Shown piece after piece: positions 48,589-56,087 of a stretch of DNA of 64,000 nt; the first letter of the stretch is position 1, and every line of letters begins with the position of its first letter. Under the pieces are notes generated by a model. It was not told the origin of the DNA, did no database searches, and worked only from the letters and a program-made list of their open reading frames with translations. The position numbers and the translations under genes were made by a program. Source of the DNA: Nitrospirota bacterium (GTDB lineage: Bacteria > Nitrospirota > Nitrospiria > Nitrospirales > Nitrospiraceae); contig CAVPBK010000006.1 in assembly GCA_963701855.1 (NCBI GenBank), positions 1,568,502-1,632,501 on the forward strand, read 5' to 3'.

Positions 48589-48676
48589 TATTTGGCCTGT
48601 CTCATTTGTATGGTTAAACAAGACCAACCAGATAACAAAACAAACCAGATCAACCAGACAGACCAGATGAACCAGC
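48589..48676. repeat. 9-mer-periodic palindromic repeat
   Basis: Shares TGGTTAAACAAGACCAACCAGAT with the copy at 23615. Confidence 0.75.
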
Positions 48677-49552
48677 TCAGCCAGGAGGCCTGCGACGGTC
48701 GATGACTGATCGAGGGAGCGCTGGGTCATCCGGCAAGGAGCCATCAGGCCCAAGGGAGACTGAAAACCCCGCGGCATGCGTATGGCCTCCACCGCCGAAA
48801 GACGCGGCGATGGCACCCACGTCGGTCCCATCCTCTCGCGAGCGCATGCTGTAATAGCGGCGTCCGTCACGATCGTGCCATATGACGCAAAATGGATGCT
48901 CAGTGGAGAGGCGCTCGCCGATCTGACTCGTCAGAACCGCACTGTGAACCGACGGAACGACGGCTCCGTGAAAGTCGATCAACATCGCTTGCGCTGCAAG
49001 TTTGCTCACGAGTTCGCTTTCATAACGCAAAATGGCCTGACCTTCCTGCTCCAACTCCTTCTGTTTGAAGTGACTCCAGAGGTGATACTCGAATGGGTAG
49101 GAGGCCACGGCCGCATTGATTTCCCGACTGGAGGGGAGCGCCCAAGTCCAGAGGTCTTTGTCTTGGATATAGTCGAGGAGCCACGGCGCAGGCCGATCAT
49201 GTGCCCATTCCCAGGCCAAGACCGCTCCGGACTTCTTCATGTCGAAATACGCATAGGGAAGGCCGGCGAGGGCTTTCTCTGCCGTGATGTGATGATCAAG
49301 CACGAGGAGCGCCTGTGTCTGAGCAGCCATGATTTCCAGCGTCTCGCGGGCATAGCTGAAATCCACGATAACGACTCGTTGGTCCTGCAGCCCTGTGGGG
49401 GGCGGATTCCCATGTTTGACGGGAATGAACCGAGCCGCTGGAAATTGATTCCAGATCGCCCAAGCGGCGCCGAACCCATCGGCACATTCGGCGTGATAGA
49501 GCACGACGGTGGGAGGCTCAGAGAATGGGTGCTGTGTGCGGGAACCAGCCAT
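48677..49552 (-). CDS. DHH/DHHA1 phosphoesterase
   Basis: YHAECADG, VDFS, LDHH, DKDLW, SMRS, GGGGH. Confidence 0.9.
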   Translation of the reverse strand: MAGSRTQHPFSEPPTVVLYHAECADGFGAAWAIWNQFPAARFIPVKHGNPPPTGLQDQRVVIVDFSYARETLEIMAAQTQALLVLDHHITAEKALAGLPYAYFDMKKSGAVLAWEWAHDRPAPWLLDYIQDKDLWTWALPSSREINAAVASYPFEYHLWSHFKQKELEQEGQAILRYESELVSKLAAQAMLIDFHGAVVPSVHSAVLTSQIGERLSTEHPFCVIWHDRDGRRYYSMRSREDGTDVGAIAASFGGGGHTHAAGFSVSLGPDGSLPDDPALPRSVIDRRRPPG

Positions 49553-50753: not shown

Positions 50754-51530
50754 TTAGGAAGGATTAGAGGAGGGAGGCATTGTTTGAAGTGCCCAGGCCC
50801 TGATACGAGCGAGATCGGTCGATGAGAGATCGGTGAACTGAATATCGACATGCCAGATGGGGTTCCCGCTCGATGGGCCATTTGGCCCTGCTCCCGGAAC
50901 TCCGATGGTCAGGACCGTTCCATGAATGGTTAAGGGAGTGTTTTGACCAGAAATGGAAAATGCCAGTATGACATTCGTTCCTGTCAGGATCTTCGCGGTC
51001 GATTCGACCAATGCTCCGACATGGCTCAGTTGGGTAATCATGGCATTATAGTTGAGTCCCTGTGTCGATACTTGTCCGACCACACTCACCACGACGGGGA
51101 TTCTTGTGCCACGTCTGGGAGGGCTGAGCATCAGGTCTTGTGCACTGAGCACTCCAACCGGTTGGTTTTGTTTGGTGACGATTAAGAGAGAGGCGCCTGT
51201 CGCCATCATGAGCGTCGAAGCCTCTGTCAGGGCCTCATCGTACTCGATGAACTCCACCGGGCGTGTCATGATTGTCCGGACTTCGATGTCGTGCGGTTCG
51301 AGCCCCTGAGCGACGACTTTCTTCACAATGTCGGTCGGTGTCATAAGGCCGAACTGCGTGTCGGTATCCTTGATGAGCAGGCAGGGCGCGCGCTCTCGCT
51401 CAAGCAGCATTGCCGCCTCGCTGACAGATACGTCTCCCGGAACTTGCACGACCCCTGGTGTCATCATATGGGCAACCATAGTGGGTATCAGATGCGTCGT
51501 TTTGAAGGGCTTGTCATCGTCGTTCGTCAT
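50754..51530 (-). CDS. CBS-pair + PilZ domain protein
   Basis: Two CBS motifs, then PRRGTR (RxxxR) and QLSHVG in a PilZ-like barrel. Confidence 0.85.
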   Translation of the reverse strand: MTNDDDKPFKTTHLIPTMVAHMMTPGVVQVPGDVSVSEAAMLLERERAPCLLIKDTDTQFGLMTPTDIVKKVVAQGLEPHDIEVRTIMTRPVEFIEYDEALTEASTLMMATGASLLIVTKQNQPVGVLSAQDLMLSPPRRGTRIPVVVSVVGQVSTQGLNYNAMITQLSHVGALVESTAKILTGTNVILAFSISGQNTPLTIHGTVLTIGVPGAGPNGPSSGNPIWHVDIQFTDLSSTDLARIRAWALQTMPPSSNPS

Positions 51531-51706
51531 GGGCTCGAGACTTCCTCCGATTCGCGCCTGCACGATTCGTGAGGGTCCGCCCCTGGCGACGTATGCCAAG
51601 TATAGCAGACGGGGCTCCCTCGCCCGTGATCGAGGCTTCCCTTGTCAAACAAGGGGTTCGGCGAATAGACTAGGCCAATTGCCAGAACAGCACAAGGGTT
51701 AATCCT

Positions 51707-53194
51707 ATGCCTGATTCCAATTTCGTTCAACAGGACTTTCAGCGCCGCCTCAGGAATATTCCCCCACTGGGTATGGGGCTCTCAGTCGACGTCTATTCCC
51801 CCAATCTGTTCGAACTGGTGAACGAGCTCAGAGTGCGAGGACTCCAGGCAGGCTATCTCGAAGTCTTTAAGGCAACGACGACCGCACTGACAGCGGTTCG
51901 ACAGGCTGTGCCGGATATGCCGCTGGCGTACCACGGAGAAGGCCTGTGGATCACTCAGCCAGACGTGCAAGCATCTCCGTTCTTTCAGCAGGACGTCGGC
52001 GAGACGGTGGCGCAACTCAACAGCATACAAAGTCTCTGGCTGAATCATGAATGTGCGATGAAACAGATGGCAGGCTACTCGTTCGGCACCTATGTTCCTC
52101 CATTGTATACGCGGTTGAGCGCCGAGGTGGTGGCGGAAAATATCGCGATGGTTCAGCAGGCGGTGGATCGGCAGGGTCGTCGAGCGGATGGAACCTCACC
52201 GCTCTTTCTCTTGGAGATGCCGCCGCTCACATATTTTTCCGCCGGCACGATTCCGATTCCCCATTTTTTTCGCATCATCACCGCGCTGGTACCCTGCGGT
52301 CTCGTCCTGGACATCGGACACCTCTGGACGGCCTATCGCTATACCGCCACTTCCCGACGGATATCGCTTGGGCGATTCGTTGGGGCATTCCTCGACGAAT
52401 TTCCTCTGGAGCGGGTCGTCGAACTCCACGTAGCGGGATTGGCCTGCCATGAGTCGGCTGGTGAGCCAAAGGGAGGAGAGGGGCTTCCTGAATGGATCGA
52501 CGCCCATGCTGCGCCTATTCCATCGGTTCTCTTCACCATGCTCGAACAGGTTCTCGCCCATTCGAATCTCGTAAGTCTCCGGGCGGTGGCTCTTGAAGTG
52601 GACACCAAACCGATTGAGATAATTGTGGAGGAGTATGCAGAGGCTGTTCGGTGTTTCTCCCTCTTCGTTCAGCAGACGATGGCCAGAGGAACGGTTGTAG
52701 AGCCAATGGGACTACAGCCTTGTTCGGCCTCAGTCCAGAAGCCGGTGTGCCAGCCGGATCGACAGCAATTACGGGACGACTATGCGCGCTACGCGAAAAT
52801 TATCTCAGGACAAGCCCCGATGACAGGACTGGAGTGGGAGGAAGCGGCCTCGGAGGCGACTGGTGTAACACGGTACCGCGAGTCCTATTTGCCGCACGAG
52901 ATTTTGCATTGGGGAGGAGACCTCGAAGAAATGTTTCCGCAGACCTGCCGGGCGTTAGCAGAGCGGGGCATTGTTCTGACTGAGTTTGTGACCTTCTGGT
53001 TTCGGTCGCCACGACCCCTCACGCATTCGTATGATTTCTTCCTCCTCAAGATCGAACGGTTTCTCGAGTTTGTGACGGAGTGTGCGCCGGATGCGCGTGT
53101 CTGTGTGCAACAGGAATGCGACATGTTGCGCCTGGCTTATGCTCAGGCGAATGAAGTGGGGGAACCTGTGATGGAGATGGAGCCATCCCAATGA
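51707..53194 (+). CDS. DUF692/MNIO (multinuclear non-heme iron enzyme) fused to a C-terminal DUF2063-like domain
   Basis: GMG, YHG, NHE, LEMP, LDIGH, ELHVAG, DAH, LEVD ligand series. C-terminal YRESY...FPQTCRAL...F...P...FLEF. Confidence 0.85.
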   Translation: MPDSNFVQQDFQRRLRNIPPLGMGLSVDVYSPNLFELVNELRVRGLQAGYLEVFKATTTALTAVRQAVPDMPLAYHGEGLWITQPDVQASPFFQQDVGETVAQLNSIQSLWLNHECAMKQMAGYSFGTYVPPLYTRLSAEVVAENIAMVQQAVDRQGRRADGTSPLFLLEMPPLTYFSAGTIPIPHFFRIITALVPCGLVLDIGHLWTAYRYTATSRRISLGRFVGAFLDEFPLERVVELHVAGLACHESAGEPKGGEGLPEWIDAHAAPIPSVLFTMLEQVLAHSNLVSLRAVALEVDTKPIEIIVEEYAEAVRCFSLFVQQTMARGTVVEPMGLQPCSASVQKPVCQPDRQQLRDDYARYAKIISGQAPMTGLEWEEAASEATGVTRYRESYLPHEILHWGGDLEEMFPQTCRALAERGIVLTEFVTFWFRSPRPLTHSYDFFLLKIERFLEFVTECAPDARVCVQQECDMLRLAYAQANEVGEPVMEMEPSQ

Positions 53195-54354
53195 GTTTCT
53201 GGCAGTCACTCACCAGACCGGTCATCGGAATGGCTCCGATGGATGGGGTCACCGATGCGACGTTTCGCTATACCGTGGCGATGCACGGGAAGCCGGACGT
53301 CTCCTTCACGGAGTTCACGCATGTGCATGATGTCTGCCGGGGACCGGAGTTTCTGTTGGACTCCCTCATCTATCATGAGGCGGAACGACCGATCGTCGCG
53401 CAGCTCTATGGGAAAGAGCCGGACCTTTTCTACCAGGCCGCTCATGCCGTGTGTGAGTTGGGATTTGATGGATTGGATATCAACATGGGCTGTCCCTCCC
53501 GGAGTGTGGCCTCATCCGGGTCGGGAGCGGGACTAATCCGAACGCCGGATGTGGCCCAGGCCATTATGCAGGCCGCTCGGCAGGGAATCGCCGATTGGAC
53601 AGCTGGTCAGACCCTTGAAGGAGCCGGTCTCAAGCCTGGCAGAGTGGCGGCGATCTGGCGGATGAACGAGCTACGACAGGATGCCCGTCCGCTCGTCCGA
53701 CACACGATCCCACTGACTGTCAAGACACGGCTCGGCTACGACGTGGTAGTTATCGACCAATGGATCGAACATCTTCTCAGGGAGCAGCCGGCAGTCATCT
53801 CCCTTCATGGACGCACCTTGCAGCAAATGTATCGGGGGGAGGCGGATTGGAACGCCATTGCCCGGGCCGCGGAGATCGTGCGGGGGAGCGGAACTTTGCT
53901 GTTCGGCAACGGAGACGTGCATAGTTATCACGACGTCGTCCGTCGTGTGCGGGAGACCGGAGTCGATGGCGTGTTGGTTGGACGAGCCGCGCTCGGAGCC
54001 CCGTGGTTCTTTCGGCAGAAGGAAGAGGCGCGACTCATTCTACAGCAGCATCGTCCTGAGGAGGGGCTGGACCCGTGGCTGCCGACACTCAACGATCGTT
54101 TCGAGGTGTTACTCGATCATGCCCGCCGGTTCGAAGAGGCCTGTGGGCAGCGCCAGTTTCGGCGGATGCGCAAACATCTGGGGTGGTATTGCAAAGGGTT
54201 TCCACATGCAGCCTCGTTGCGAGCTGGTATGTTTCGAGTCTCGTCGGTCGCTGACTTGGAGCAGGTGCTCGCCGATTATCGCATGCACTGCACGAGTTTC
54301 AACGAGGTCTCCGACCAGATGCCGCTTGCTGCCGAGCCTTCTCCGGCGTTGTAG
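53191..54354 (+). CDS. dus: tRNA-dihydrouridine synthase family flavoprotein
   Basis: APMDGVTD, QL, DINMGCP, KTRLG, HGRT, NGD, GR, RKH. About 35-aa insertion before KTRLG. Confidence 0.93.
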   Translation: MSFWQSLTRPVIGMAPMDGVTDATFRYTVAMHGKPDVSFTEFTHVHDVCRGPEFLLDSLIYHEAERPIVAQLYGKEPDLFYQAAHAVCELGFDGLDINMGCPSRSVASSGSGAGLIRTPDVAQAIMQAARQGIADWTAGQTLEGAGLKPGRVAAIWRMNELRQDARPLVRHTIPLTVKTRLGYDVVVIDQWIEHLLREQPAVISLHGRTLQQMYRGEADWNAIARAAEIVRGSGTLLFGNGDVHSYHDVVRRVRETGVDGVLVGRAALGAPWFFRQKEEARLILQQHRPEEGLDPWLPTLNDRFEVLLDHARRFEEACGQRQFRRMRKHLGWYCKGFPHAASLRAGMFRVSSVADLEQVLADYRMHCTSFNEVSDQMPLAAEPSPAL

Positions 54355-54988
54355 ATGCCACTTATTCTGGCTTCAACCTCTCCGCGCCGACGTGAGTTGC
54401 TTGCTTTGCTGGGCATCCCATTCAACGTCAAAATACCACCCTTCGAGGAGCGGCTGGAGGTTGATTGTCCGGCGACCCAACAGGTAATGTCCTTCGCGCA
54501 GGGCAAGGCCCAGTCGGTCGCGAGGCAAGAGCCGGAAGCGATTGTGCTGGGGAGCGACACAGTGATTGAGTTGAATCATCACATGCTCGGGAAACCGGGC
54601 GATCTGGCGGAGGCCCGTGCGATGCTCCGGCGCCTGGCCGGCCGCGGTCATTTCGTACGCACGGCGGTTGCGCTCGTCTGTTCATCTCGTGCGATAGACG
54701 TTCGTTGCATTATCTACGGCCGTCGTTCGGATGAAGCCCTTCGACGAACAAATGCATGAGCAGTATCTCGGGACAAGAGAAAGTCTCGACAAGGCCGGCG
54801 CCTACTCGATCCAAGGAGAGGGCGGCGACCTGGTCGATTCCATTGACGGAGATTTTCCGACGGTAGTCGGCCTGCCGCTTCGCCTAGTCGCCCAGCTGCT
54901 TACACAAGCCGGTGTAAGCATGCCGGTCGATCTTGACGAACTCTATGCCATCAAGCCCTATGCCAACTGGGCCCGCTTCTCAGCCTAA
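54355..54988 (+). pseudogene. maf: Maf (YhdE-type) nucleoside triphosphate pyrophosphatase with a +1 frameshift at ~54703 (possibly sequencing error)
   Basis: LILASTSPRR, GSDTVI, LGKP in the first frame. DKAGAYSIQG and VVGLP in the second. Removing one base at GACGTTCGTT joins them. Confidence 0.88.
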
Positions 54989-55056: not shown

Positions 55057-55728
55057 ATGAGCGTGCGATGCCTAACATCGGCGACGCGAATCGGTGGCGT
55101 TGCTATTTGTGCGGTCGCGGGCCTGTTGACGGTCGTCTGTCTCCATCCGGTCTTCGCGATCGATGCGAAGCTCTCAGCGGAAGAAGCACAAAAAGCCTTG
55201 GAAGCCGGGCGGGTGCCGATGGAGAAGGCCAATACCCCAGAGGACGTCAAGAAGATCCTCCAGCACGCTTCTATGGTTACGCGTGTAGGCGCCGATCCAG
55301 AGAAAGATTCCTGTGGTGCCAGTGCCGTCCTCCGGACCAAACGCTATCGACTTGAAGCCTTTGGCCGACAGGAAGCGGCGGAGTCCAAGAAGAGGAAAAC
55401 TGATGTGCGCATGCCAGAAGAGTTTATTAAGAAAGTCGTGGACATGCCCAATATGGAGATTGAAGTTCAGCTGTGTGGCGATGACGAATACTTTGCAGAA
55501 GGTGCCTTGATTGAGTTGCAACAGGGCTCCAAGAGGATCAAGCCCATCGATATTGGAAAAGCTGAACGTGGCCGAAAGAATGAGGGAAGCGGGCCGACCT
55601 ACCGGTCACGCTTTACCGCACTCTTTGCTTATGAAACATTCGATCCCACCGCGGCGTCCGTTTTCGTTGTGAATCTTCAGGATGGACATGAGGCGAGAAT
55701 CGCTGCCGATTTCTCTAAGGTGAAGTAG
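55057..55728 (+). CDS. Exported hypothetical protein with two mature-region Cys
   Basis: GGAG RBS, signal peptide VFA, 223 aa. Confidence 0.8.
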   Translation: MSVRCLTSATRIGGVAICAVAGLLTVVCLHPVFAIDAKLSAEEAQKALEAGRVPMEKANTPEDVKKILQHASMVTRVGADPEKDSCGASAVLRTKRYRLEAFGRQEAAESKKRKTDVRMPEEFIKKVVDMPNMEIEVQLCGDDEYFAEGALIELQQGSKRIKPIDIGKAERGRKNEGSGPTYRSRFTALFAYETFDPTAASVFVVNLQDGHEARIAADFSKVK

Positions 55729-55965
55729 CCACACCTCTTTGATCTTGTTTCGTGCCAATCTGCGCAACCGCTCCTGCTGTCCGGCGAGCGCCTGTTCCCC
55801 GTCAGATACTTGGTCTTACCTTTGCTAATCATGATAATAGTTGGCAGAAACATCAATAAATAGAGCGAATAGTGGGGCATTCCTCACCAAGAGGGGGTTT
55901 GTATGTGGCTTTTCGCGCCAAAACAACCTTGACCCCTTCCAGGGCAAAGGGCTAGCTTCATGATT

Positions 55966-56070
55966 ATGGTCTGTCTGGTTCATCTGGTTTGTTTGGTTTA
56001 TCTGGTTGGTCTGGTCAGTCAGGTTTAACCAAACAAACGAGACGAACAAGATAGGCCAGATAAACCAGAT
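55966..56070. repeat. 9-mer-periodic palindromic repeat (clearest copy)
   Basis: (TCTGGTTYR)n left arm, GGTTTAACC centre, right arm ending CCAGATAAACCAGAT. Confidence 0.8.
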
Positions 56071-56087
56071 TGGAGAAGGAGTGCAGC

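Follow-up and report, generated by a model that had tools for sequence, protein, structure and literature searches.

The question raised by this locus is what an MNIO enzyme acts on when no candidate peptide is encoded beside it. The MNIO family (DUF692) of unusual peptide-oxidising enzymes is growing fast, and substrates are normally sought in genes adjacent to the enzyme. The window analysed here, i.e. the whole stretch of 64,000 nucleotides (nt) at positions 1568502-1632501 of contig CAVPBK010000006.1, comes from a genome of 4.30 Mb (15 contigs, 97% complete) of the Nitrospiraceae, the family of the main nitrite oxidisers and of comammox bacteria. On its forward strand, the window encodes a 495-amino-acid (aa) protein in which an MNIO barrel is joined to a helical domain resembling an MNIO partner (51707-53194), and dus and maf follow directly. 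An earlier reading, made from the sequence only, had proposed that this fused MNIO may form a system with Dus and Maf in a uridine-modification or nucleotide-sanitising pathway. We find that the 495-aa enzyme represents a genuine MNIO variant, distinct and so far uncharacterised, and that MNIO-dus-maf is a gene order specific to the Nitrospiraceae, laid over an older, order-wide dus-maf pair, and not a functional system.

The 495-aa protein belongs, as a divergent member, to the MNIO/DUF692 superfamily. Profile PF05114 (MbnB_TglH_ChrH), a check that the sequence-only reading had called for, matches residues 54-314 at 51.3 bits against a cut-off of 25, and a search of the genome with this profile returned the protein as its sole match (52.7 bits). 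The AlphaFold model, built on a 28-row alignment (mean pLDDT 90.6, pTM 0.90), shows a TIM barrel at residues ~20-330 that a short disordered linker joins to an all-helical domain with helices between residues 349 and 481. Based on Foldseek, profile alignment and residue conservation, the MNIO barrel domain was assigned to residues 1-330 (51707-52696). For the barrel, TglH (8hci_B) is the best Foldseek match (E 4.9e-11, TMt 0.72), MbnB (7dz9, 7fc0 and 7tcr) gives TMt values of 0.76-0.81 and the DUF692 structure 3bww gives 0.77; endonuclease IV and sugar epimerases rank after the MNIO structures. The NCBIfam equivalog models score far under their cut-offs (BufB, the best match, 42.6 vs. 310; HvfB, 19.4 vs. 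360; ApyH, 39.6 vs. 400), and the protein therefore falls in a separate subfamily.

Conservation within the fused clade was read from 24 rows for the previously listed ligand series and from 21 rows (30-51% identity to the 495-aa protein) for a set of ten positions. In the latter, E52, H76, E115, E170, D202, H205, H241, D265, H267 and E297 are invariant in 21/21 sequences. The sequence-only reading had listed nine MNIO ligands, of which eight (H76, E170, D202, H205, H241, D265, H267 and E297) are indeed invariant in 24/24 rows, but the ninth, H114, varies (H in 17, Q in 6 and L in 1). Its place is taken by the adjacent, invariant E115, which in the profile alignment stands opposite a His of 3bww and TglH. 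In the same alignment, H205 stands opposite an Asn in 3bww, TglH and MbnB, and H76, E170, D202, H241, D265, H267 and E297 align to conserved motifs of these three proteins. Thus, the metal site is retained, as judged from its ten invariant positions, yet remodelled at two of them, with Glu for His at 115 and His for Asn at 205. The corresponding positions of MbnB and TglH are iron ligands. Iron binding, oxidative chemistry and the class of substrate are what we infer for the protein. All 24/24 fused-clade proteins are acidic in both domains (pI 4.85-5.65, net charge -14 to -32), a composition that speaks against the enzyme binding RNA directly and in favour of a cationic substrate.

Downstream of the barrel, residues 331-344 (52697-52738) form a variable linker, with pLDDT values below 50 at residues 335-340 and unconserved columns in the 28-row alignment. 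The remainder is an all-helical, partner-like domain at residues ~345-485 (52739-53161), as delineated by the models, by VIA-align structure comparison and by the split loci described below. Sequence profiles do not place it: the last ~170 residues have no Pfam match at E<=0.01, PF09836 (DUF2063), the second profile check of the earlier reading, finds nothing at E<=1 among 25 C-domain sequences, and a PDB profile search yielded no relevant relatives among solved structures. When folded alone, the domain has a pLDDT of 86, and it is ~140 aa long and all helical in both models. For this domain, no Foldseek match reaches E<=1e-3, and TglI comes third (TMq 0.44). VIA-align, run exhaustively over 48,161 chains, ranked NGO1945/DUF2063 (3dee_A) first (Z 6.6, root-mean-square deviation 2.8 over 83 residues), TglI (8hci_C) second (Z 5.9, 123 residues) and MbnC (7dz9_C) seventh (Z 4.9, 110 residues), each Z value lying in the range that the tool deems common for helical proteins. 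The matches span the N-terminal parts of the partners (residues 31-117 of 3dee and 2-154 of TglI). That all three solved MNIO partner families appear within the top seven of such a model-based comparison is hard to ascribe to chance. A C-terminal part of the RiPP recognition element (RRE) type (RiPP, ribosomally synthesised and post-translationally modified peptide) is missing from both models, in which there is no beta structure and the protein ends ~10 residues past the last helix.

Gene fission or fusion supplies a second line of evidence. In a metagenome scan for split forms, two short contigs were confirmed (L132:1-1308 and L133:1-1001, where L-numbers denote loci), in which barrel and C-domain are encoded by separate, overlapping open reading frames (ORFs): in L132, a 147-aa C-domain ORF overlaps the MNIO stop codon through ATGA, and in L133, a 155-aa ORF overlaps by 31 nt. 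Stand-alone forms also occur on contigs of 7-18 kb. The MNIO-partner fusion is thus supported by fold matches and by gene fission/fusion, not by hidden Markov models, and the ~140-aa C-terminal partner domain proposed earlier holds up on these grounds. The modelled structures support the view that the C-domain is the helical core of an MNIO partner, probably corresponding to the N-terminal domains of NGO1945/DUF2063, TglI and MbnC. As a separate observation, the annotation of one related stand-alone partner traces it to a 'Nitrospiria bacterium' metagenome-assembled genome.

Compared with the characterised systems, the enzyme shares parts with each of them. Like TglH-TglI (8HCI/8HI7), it combines an MNIO with a helical partner, and this pair provides the best barrel match and the second-best helical-domain match; however, the Nitrospira enzyme is one polypeptide with a partner part of ~140 aa, has no adjacent precursor or pathway gene, shares only 14-16% identity, and carries Glu at the TglH His and His at the Asn position. 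BufB/HvfB with BufC/HvfC is related through the N-terminal helical domain of NGO1945 (3DEE, 3dee_A), the top fold match of the C-domain, and through BufB as the best NCBIfam match. Unlike these, the Nitrospira enzyme stays under the equivalog cut-offs and lacks both a PF09836 match and an RRE-type C-terminal half; no DUF2282 precursor or separate DUF2063 gene was found in its genome (97% complete), and DoxX and an extracytoplasmic function (ECF) sigma factor are missing nearby. Both components of MbnB-MbnC (7DZ9, 7FC0 and 7TCR) are matched, the barrel at Foldseek ranks 2-11 and the partner at VIA-align rank 7, but the Nitrospira enzyme is fused and not heteromeric, is without an MbnA-like precursor, and has weak profile similarity (24.7 bits).

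Two further groups offer precedents. MovX, which carries an extra winged helix-turn-helix domain, is an MNIO without a separate partner in PMC12452194, and PMC13056109 presents ChrH-like enzymes acting on whole proteins of >30 kDa; in both cases, the substrates are encoded beside the enzyme, whereas here the extra domain is helical and partner-like, not a winged helix-turn-helix. MNIO-DUF2063 fusions are also found in the ESM Atlas, mostly in Myxococcota, where a 557-aa cluster has PF05114 in 100%, PF09836 in 29% and NGO1945_C in 10% of its members. Since such clusters contain DUF2063 in part of their members, fusion as such is not unique; recognisable DUF2063/NGO1945_C signatures are present there and absent from the Nitrospira clade, and the feature similarity of 0.80 serves as a lead. 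Neither Nitrospira nor dihydrouridine occurs in the main text and text supplements of PMC12452194, where a listing in one further supplement file is possible, and the matches listed for literature linking MNIO or DUF692 to Nitrospira held nothing relevant.

The distribution of the enzyme was examined in a phylum sample of 401 genomes and an order sample of 131 genomes. Families are labelled f1 (the Nitrospiraceae), f2, f3 and f45 (other families of the same order) and f23 (a distant family of the phylum); g14, g15 and g166 are genera, and G-numbers denote genomes. Among 1.84 billion entries, 223 representatives were found at E<=1e-3 and 61 at 1e-30, so the clade is small. Within the phylum sample, 114/401 genomes have the MNIO, namely 75/75 in f1, 28/28 in f23, 2/2 in f3 and 7/40 in f2, with 1/2 in f8 (a partial match at a contig end) and none in the other families. 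The order sample gives 52/52 in f1, 12/52 in f2 (0/30 in g14, 7/12 in g15), 10/21 in f3 (0/7 in g166) and 0/5 in f45; in total, 75 of its 131 genomes are MNIO-plus and 56 MNIO-minus, and the split runs through single genera, with the MNIO in 5/7 genomes of g17, 3/4 of g167 and 3/4 of g19 besides the 7/12 of g15. The fused architecture and the length are conserved across the phylum, and the MNIO appears to be vertically inherited in Nitrospirota.

Gene order was compared in the same families. For the Nitrospiraceae, the counts refer to 80 loci retained via the 21-row alignment, all of them close relatives of the analysed locus. Where the contig leaves room, Dus lies directly 3' of the MNIO in 73/74 loci, Maf follows in 72/72, and p223, the gene of a 223-aa protein, in 67/67; the MNIO-dus spacing is 0-39 nt in 74/76 loci with both genes matched. 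The whole block of rhomboid-DHH-LOG-CBSPilZ / MNIO-Dus-Maf-p223 is syntenic in 8/8 Nitrospiraceae 20-kb loci, and the MNIO-dus-maf order is therefore part of a general synteny. The conservation that the sequence-only reading had asked about exists inside this family and ends at its border: within ~9 kb of the MNIO, dus, maf and p223 are missing from 12/12 loci outside the Nitrospiraceae.

In those families, the context was determined with Pfam on 88 neighbours and with NCBIfam. In f2, the order is gltB-gltD-MNIO. In f3, a ~110-aa ORF precedes the MNIO, which is followed by the gene of an RluF-like pseudouridine synthase and then by a B12-binding radical SAM gene; the order of small ORF, MNIO and RluF-like gene recurs in 9/9 loci from four genera (the radical SAM gene is visible in 7), and the MNIO overlaps or abuts the RluF-like gene (by 4 nt in L044). 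In f23, a TetR, GGDEF or TPR gene lies upstream and a CheZ-like gene (4/5 loci) or the gene of a methyl-accepting chemotaxis protein lies downstream. Across the four families, no precursor-like or conserved neighbour was found.

These neighbourhoods persist in the absence of the MNIO. In f2 and f3, dus and maf lie side by side in 4/4 genomes, two without an MNIO and two with it elsewhere, and in both of the two f2 genomes LOG or DHH lies divergently upstream of the pair. In the g15 genome G333, the MNIO comes after gltD, and in the MNIO-less G225 and G159 there are ~140 nt between gltD and the same next gene. Likewise, in MNIO-less g166, the RluF-like and radical SAM genes come straight after the small ORF in 4/4 loci that reach far enough (5 fetched). 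Since the flanking genes are unchanged with or without it, the MNIO is a single-gene cassette inserted into or lost from housekeeping neighbourhoods. In Nitrospira and relatives, the MNIO is a stand-alone single-gene module with its partner domain fused, and its linkage to RNA/nucleotide housekeeping genes is incidental on present evidence. A joint system with Dus and Maf is thus not supported by this comparison, which turned up orthologs unlinked to dus/maf, an outcome that the earlier reading itself had named as refuting its idea. The notion of a self-contained, precursor-less MNIO is supported, as no precursor gene is adjacent in any lineage examined.

As for the function of the enzyme, we give a little better than an even chance to a self-contained oxidase whose substrate, a peptide or protein, has its gene elsewhere and is recognised independently of an RRE. 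In such an enzyme, the substrate cleft would be walled on one side by the fused helical domain, and the multi-iron site would use O2 to oxidise a residue of that peptide or protein. Recognition would proceed without a classical leader/RRE interaction, and the substrate would probably be cationic, judging from the strongly acidic composition of the enzyme. Several features of this reading have parallels in the literature: genes for bufferin precursors often lie apart from the MNIO gene, small MNIO clusters for which no precursor is identified are numerous, and there are partners lacking full RREs (PMC12452194), and MNIOs modify proteins of >30 kDa (PMC13056109).

Several points weigh against such an oxidase. 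No substrate was identified, and no tested protein co-varies with the enzyme. The protein has no RRE, and the partner-fold Z values of 4.9-6.6 are, as said, of a common size for helical proteins. Moreover, universal presence in the Nitrospiraceae (75/75) with no precursor-like gene is atypical of a RiPP enzyme, and given this retention, a metabolic or a nucleic-acid substrate fits equally well. Finally, dus in f1 and the RluF-like gene in f3 represent two independent placements of the MNIO directly upstream of genes of uridine-modifying enzymes, which is more than we would expect by chance.

The alternative that survives best, which we regard as unlikely, is a metabolic enzyme (an oxidase, isomerase or similar) that has reused the TIM barrel for a small molecule, with the helical domain as a lid. 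A single-copy gene that is universal in two families, has no precursor or partner gene nearby and moves as a single gene would suit such an enzyme, as would the Foldseek kinship to sugar isomerases and epimerases and the two clade-specific changes in the metal site. On the other hand, TglH and MbnB are closer than the isomerases in Foldseek, the partner-type domain, known for handling peptides, has been kept, and repeated loss argues against a core metabolic step. In addition, the characterised MNIOs named in the available text of PMC12452194, PMC13174530 and PMC13056109 all act on a peptide or protein.

We consider still less probable the uridine-centred RNA/nucleotide pathway with Dus and Maf, in which tRNA or rRNA uridine, dihydrouridine or a uridine nucleotide would be the substrate. 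The 4-nt ATGA overlap with dus, the tight MNIO-dus spacing (0-39 nt in 74/76 loci), the RluF-like gene overlapped or abutted by the MNIO in 9/9 f3 loci, and the kinship of the MNIO fold to endonuclease IV (Foldseek ranks 8 and 16 onward) all speak for it, and the second, independent coupling to the gene of a uridine-modifying enzyme in f3 keeps it alive. However, dus and maf are near the MNIO in 0/12 loci outside the Nitrospiraceae, the dus-maf pair is kept in 4/4 f2/f3 genomes regardless of the MNIO, and the RluF-like gene retains its place where the MNIO is absent. Dus and Maf are, furthermore, the sole copies of the genome, the acidity of both domains in 24/24 clade members is unfavourable for RNA binding, no RNA family or tRNA gene lies nearby (47-60 kb), and RNA modification by an MNIO is absent from the literature on MNIO and tRNA, among the matches listed. 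A related and more speculative idea, to which we attach a similarly low probability, is that this is the first MNIO with a substrate in the translation apparatus instead of a RiPP precursor from a neighbouring gene, be it uridine-containing RNA/nucleotides or a basic housekeeping protein, e.g. a ribosomal protein; it is hinted at by the dus and RluF-like placements, the acidity, the missing RRE and the remodelled metal site.

A substrate among the adjacent products, i.e. Dus, p223, the CBS-PilZ protein or the ~110-aa protein of f3, is very improbable. The adjacency is stable in the Nitrospiraceae (Dus 73/74, p223 67/67, CBS-PilZ 79/79), bufferin precursors also have signal peptides according to PMC12452194, and whole proteins of >30 kDa are modified by MNIOs in PMC13056109, but the phyletic patterns of p223, the f3 small protein and CBS-PilZ disagree with that of the MNIO, and Dus orthologs are of similar length in MNIO-less genomes. 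Least credible of all is a non-catalytic relic or scaffold, which Glu at the canonical His position, His at the Asn position and the lack of a known function would allow, but which sits badly with ten metal-site positions invariant over 21 sequences of 30-50% identity and with a fused architecture and length conserved across the phylum.

The candidates tried as co-varying partners of the enzyme were all rejected. p223 (55057-55728, forward strand) encodes a signal-peptide protein without a family in Pfam or NCBIfam. It is found in f2 in 40/40 genomes and in g14 in 26/26 (where the MNIO is in 0/26) and in 0/28 of f23, so that the patterns disagree. Within the order, all sampled genomes have it (f1 75/75, f2 40/40, f3 2/2), usually together with a weaker second match, and homologs were not found outside the order. 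The ~110-aa protein of f3 is present in 71/75 genomes of f1, 39/40 of f2, 2/2 of f3 and 0/28 of f23, a pattern unlike that of the MNIO. This protein (L044:8569-8925) is highly conserved (70% identical between families) and belongs to no family in Pfam or NCBIfam; in f3 its ORF lies directly upstream of the MNIO, or of the RluF-like gene where the MNIO is absent, and in the analysed genome its ortholog is at contig 6:896298-896630, ~720 kb from the MNIO locus.

A third paralog of the BFN (bifunctional nuclease) domain was likewise set aside, as it shows no correlation with the MNIO across the order, where many MNIO-plus genomes are without it and many MNIO-minus g14 genomes have it. This divergent gene stands beside an MBL-fold gene (L043:12331-12906; G186:C1:3695058-3695477), and in g15 it and the MNIO are lost from the same three genomes, the two intervening genes being retained. 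The CBS-PilZ protein was rejected since its full-length form is essentially confined to f1. Its gene (50754-51599, reverse strand), a Nitrospiraceae-specific one, combines a CBS pair with a PilZ-like end that scores 21.7 bits, just below the cut-off of 22.5, and is always divergent from the Nitrospiraceae MNIO (79/79 loci). To judge from its domains, the product may be a c-di-GMP-binding regulator. Another neighbour in f3, a 729-aa B12-binding radical SAM protein (L044:11150-13336), has a stop/start overlap with the RluF-like gene, persists without the MNIO, and shows weak similarity to P-/C-methyltransferase and RiPP radical SAM models.

The two genes downstream of the MNIO are as named in the earlier reading, and both junctions described there are real: the MNIO ORF (51707-53194, 495 aa) and the 387-aa ORF (53191-54354) overlap through ATGA at 53191-53194, and the TAG of the latter abuts the ATG at 54355 (TAGATG, 54352-54357). 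The second gene is dus (53191-54354, forward strand), co-oriented with and overlapping the MNIO gene and not specific to MNIO-bearing genomes. Its product is a Dus-family member by PF01207 (189.7 bits) and DusB-like, the DusB equivalog TIGR00737 scoring 214.1, under its cut-off of 293.3. In an MNIO-less genome, the ortholog of this Dus aligns over residues 1-365 with 56% identity, spanning the stretch that splits the Pfam match here. Both Dus and Maf are encoded in the genome by these copies only.

The third gene, maf (54355-54988, forward strand), is not an intact ORF in the given sequence. PF02545 matches in two frames, at 54355-54759 (profile positions 1-109) and 54731-54988 (profile positions 127-186), and compared with three relatives there is one extra base near 54701 (54695-54705). 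The two halves share one frame in 73/73 other Nitrospiraceae loci, and the extra base at 54701 is missing from near-identical contigs of 4/4 soil metagenome runs (4 studies). From these relatives and contigs, the maf frameshift is probably an assembly error or a strain-private lesion, and since the indel is probably an assembly error, further frameshifts may exist in the analysed stretch.

Pfam scans of the larger ORFs at 45.8-60.7 kb found neither DoxX nor an ECF sigma factor, and there is no Cys-rich small ORF near the MNIO gene, all as the sequence-only reading had stated. The other ORFs of this region encode a rhomboid protease, DHH/DHHA1 and LOG-type proteins, histidine kinases, response regulators and two sigma-54 activators. 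In the 107-nt gap upstream of the MNIO gene, the sole ORF is a 34-codon GTG ORF that overlaps the 5' end of the divergent CBS gene. The gap also contains a weak sigma-70-like promoter match on the forward strand (51642-51671; TTGTCA, 18 nt, TAGACT, 9/12), detected by a consensus scan that found 6 such sites in the region vs. 2.0 expected. No Rfam family or tRNA gene was found at 47-60 kb. The intergenic stretches 55960-56075 and 48600-48680 contain short CTGGTT/AACCAG-type repeats with a period of 7-8 nt, which yield spurious N-Q-T-rich ORFs; the two halves of 55960-56075 resemble an imperfect inverted repeat, which has no Rfam match.

Taken together, these results show that the practice of looking for an MNIO substrate next door fails completely for this clade, as there is no neighbouring substrate in any sampled lineage. 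They also caution against taking tight translational coupling within a single family as evidence for a shared pathway. A core gene of the Nitrospiraceae combines a fused partner, the absence of an RRE and an altered metal site, and its MNIO-plus and MNIO-minus sister genera constitute a ready natural comparative design. Once found, the target of the enzyme would either extend nitrifier biology by a housekeeping protein modification or take MNIO chemistry beyond RiPPs.

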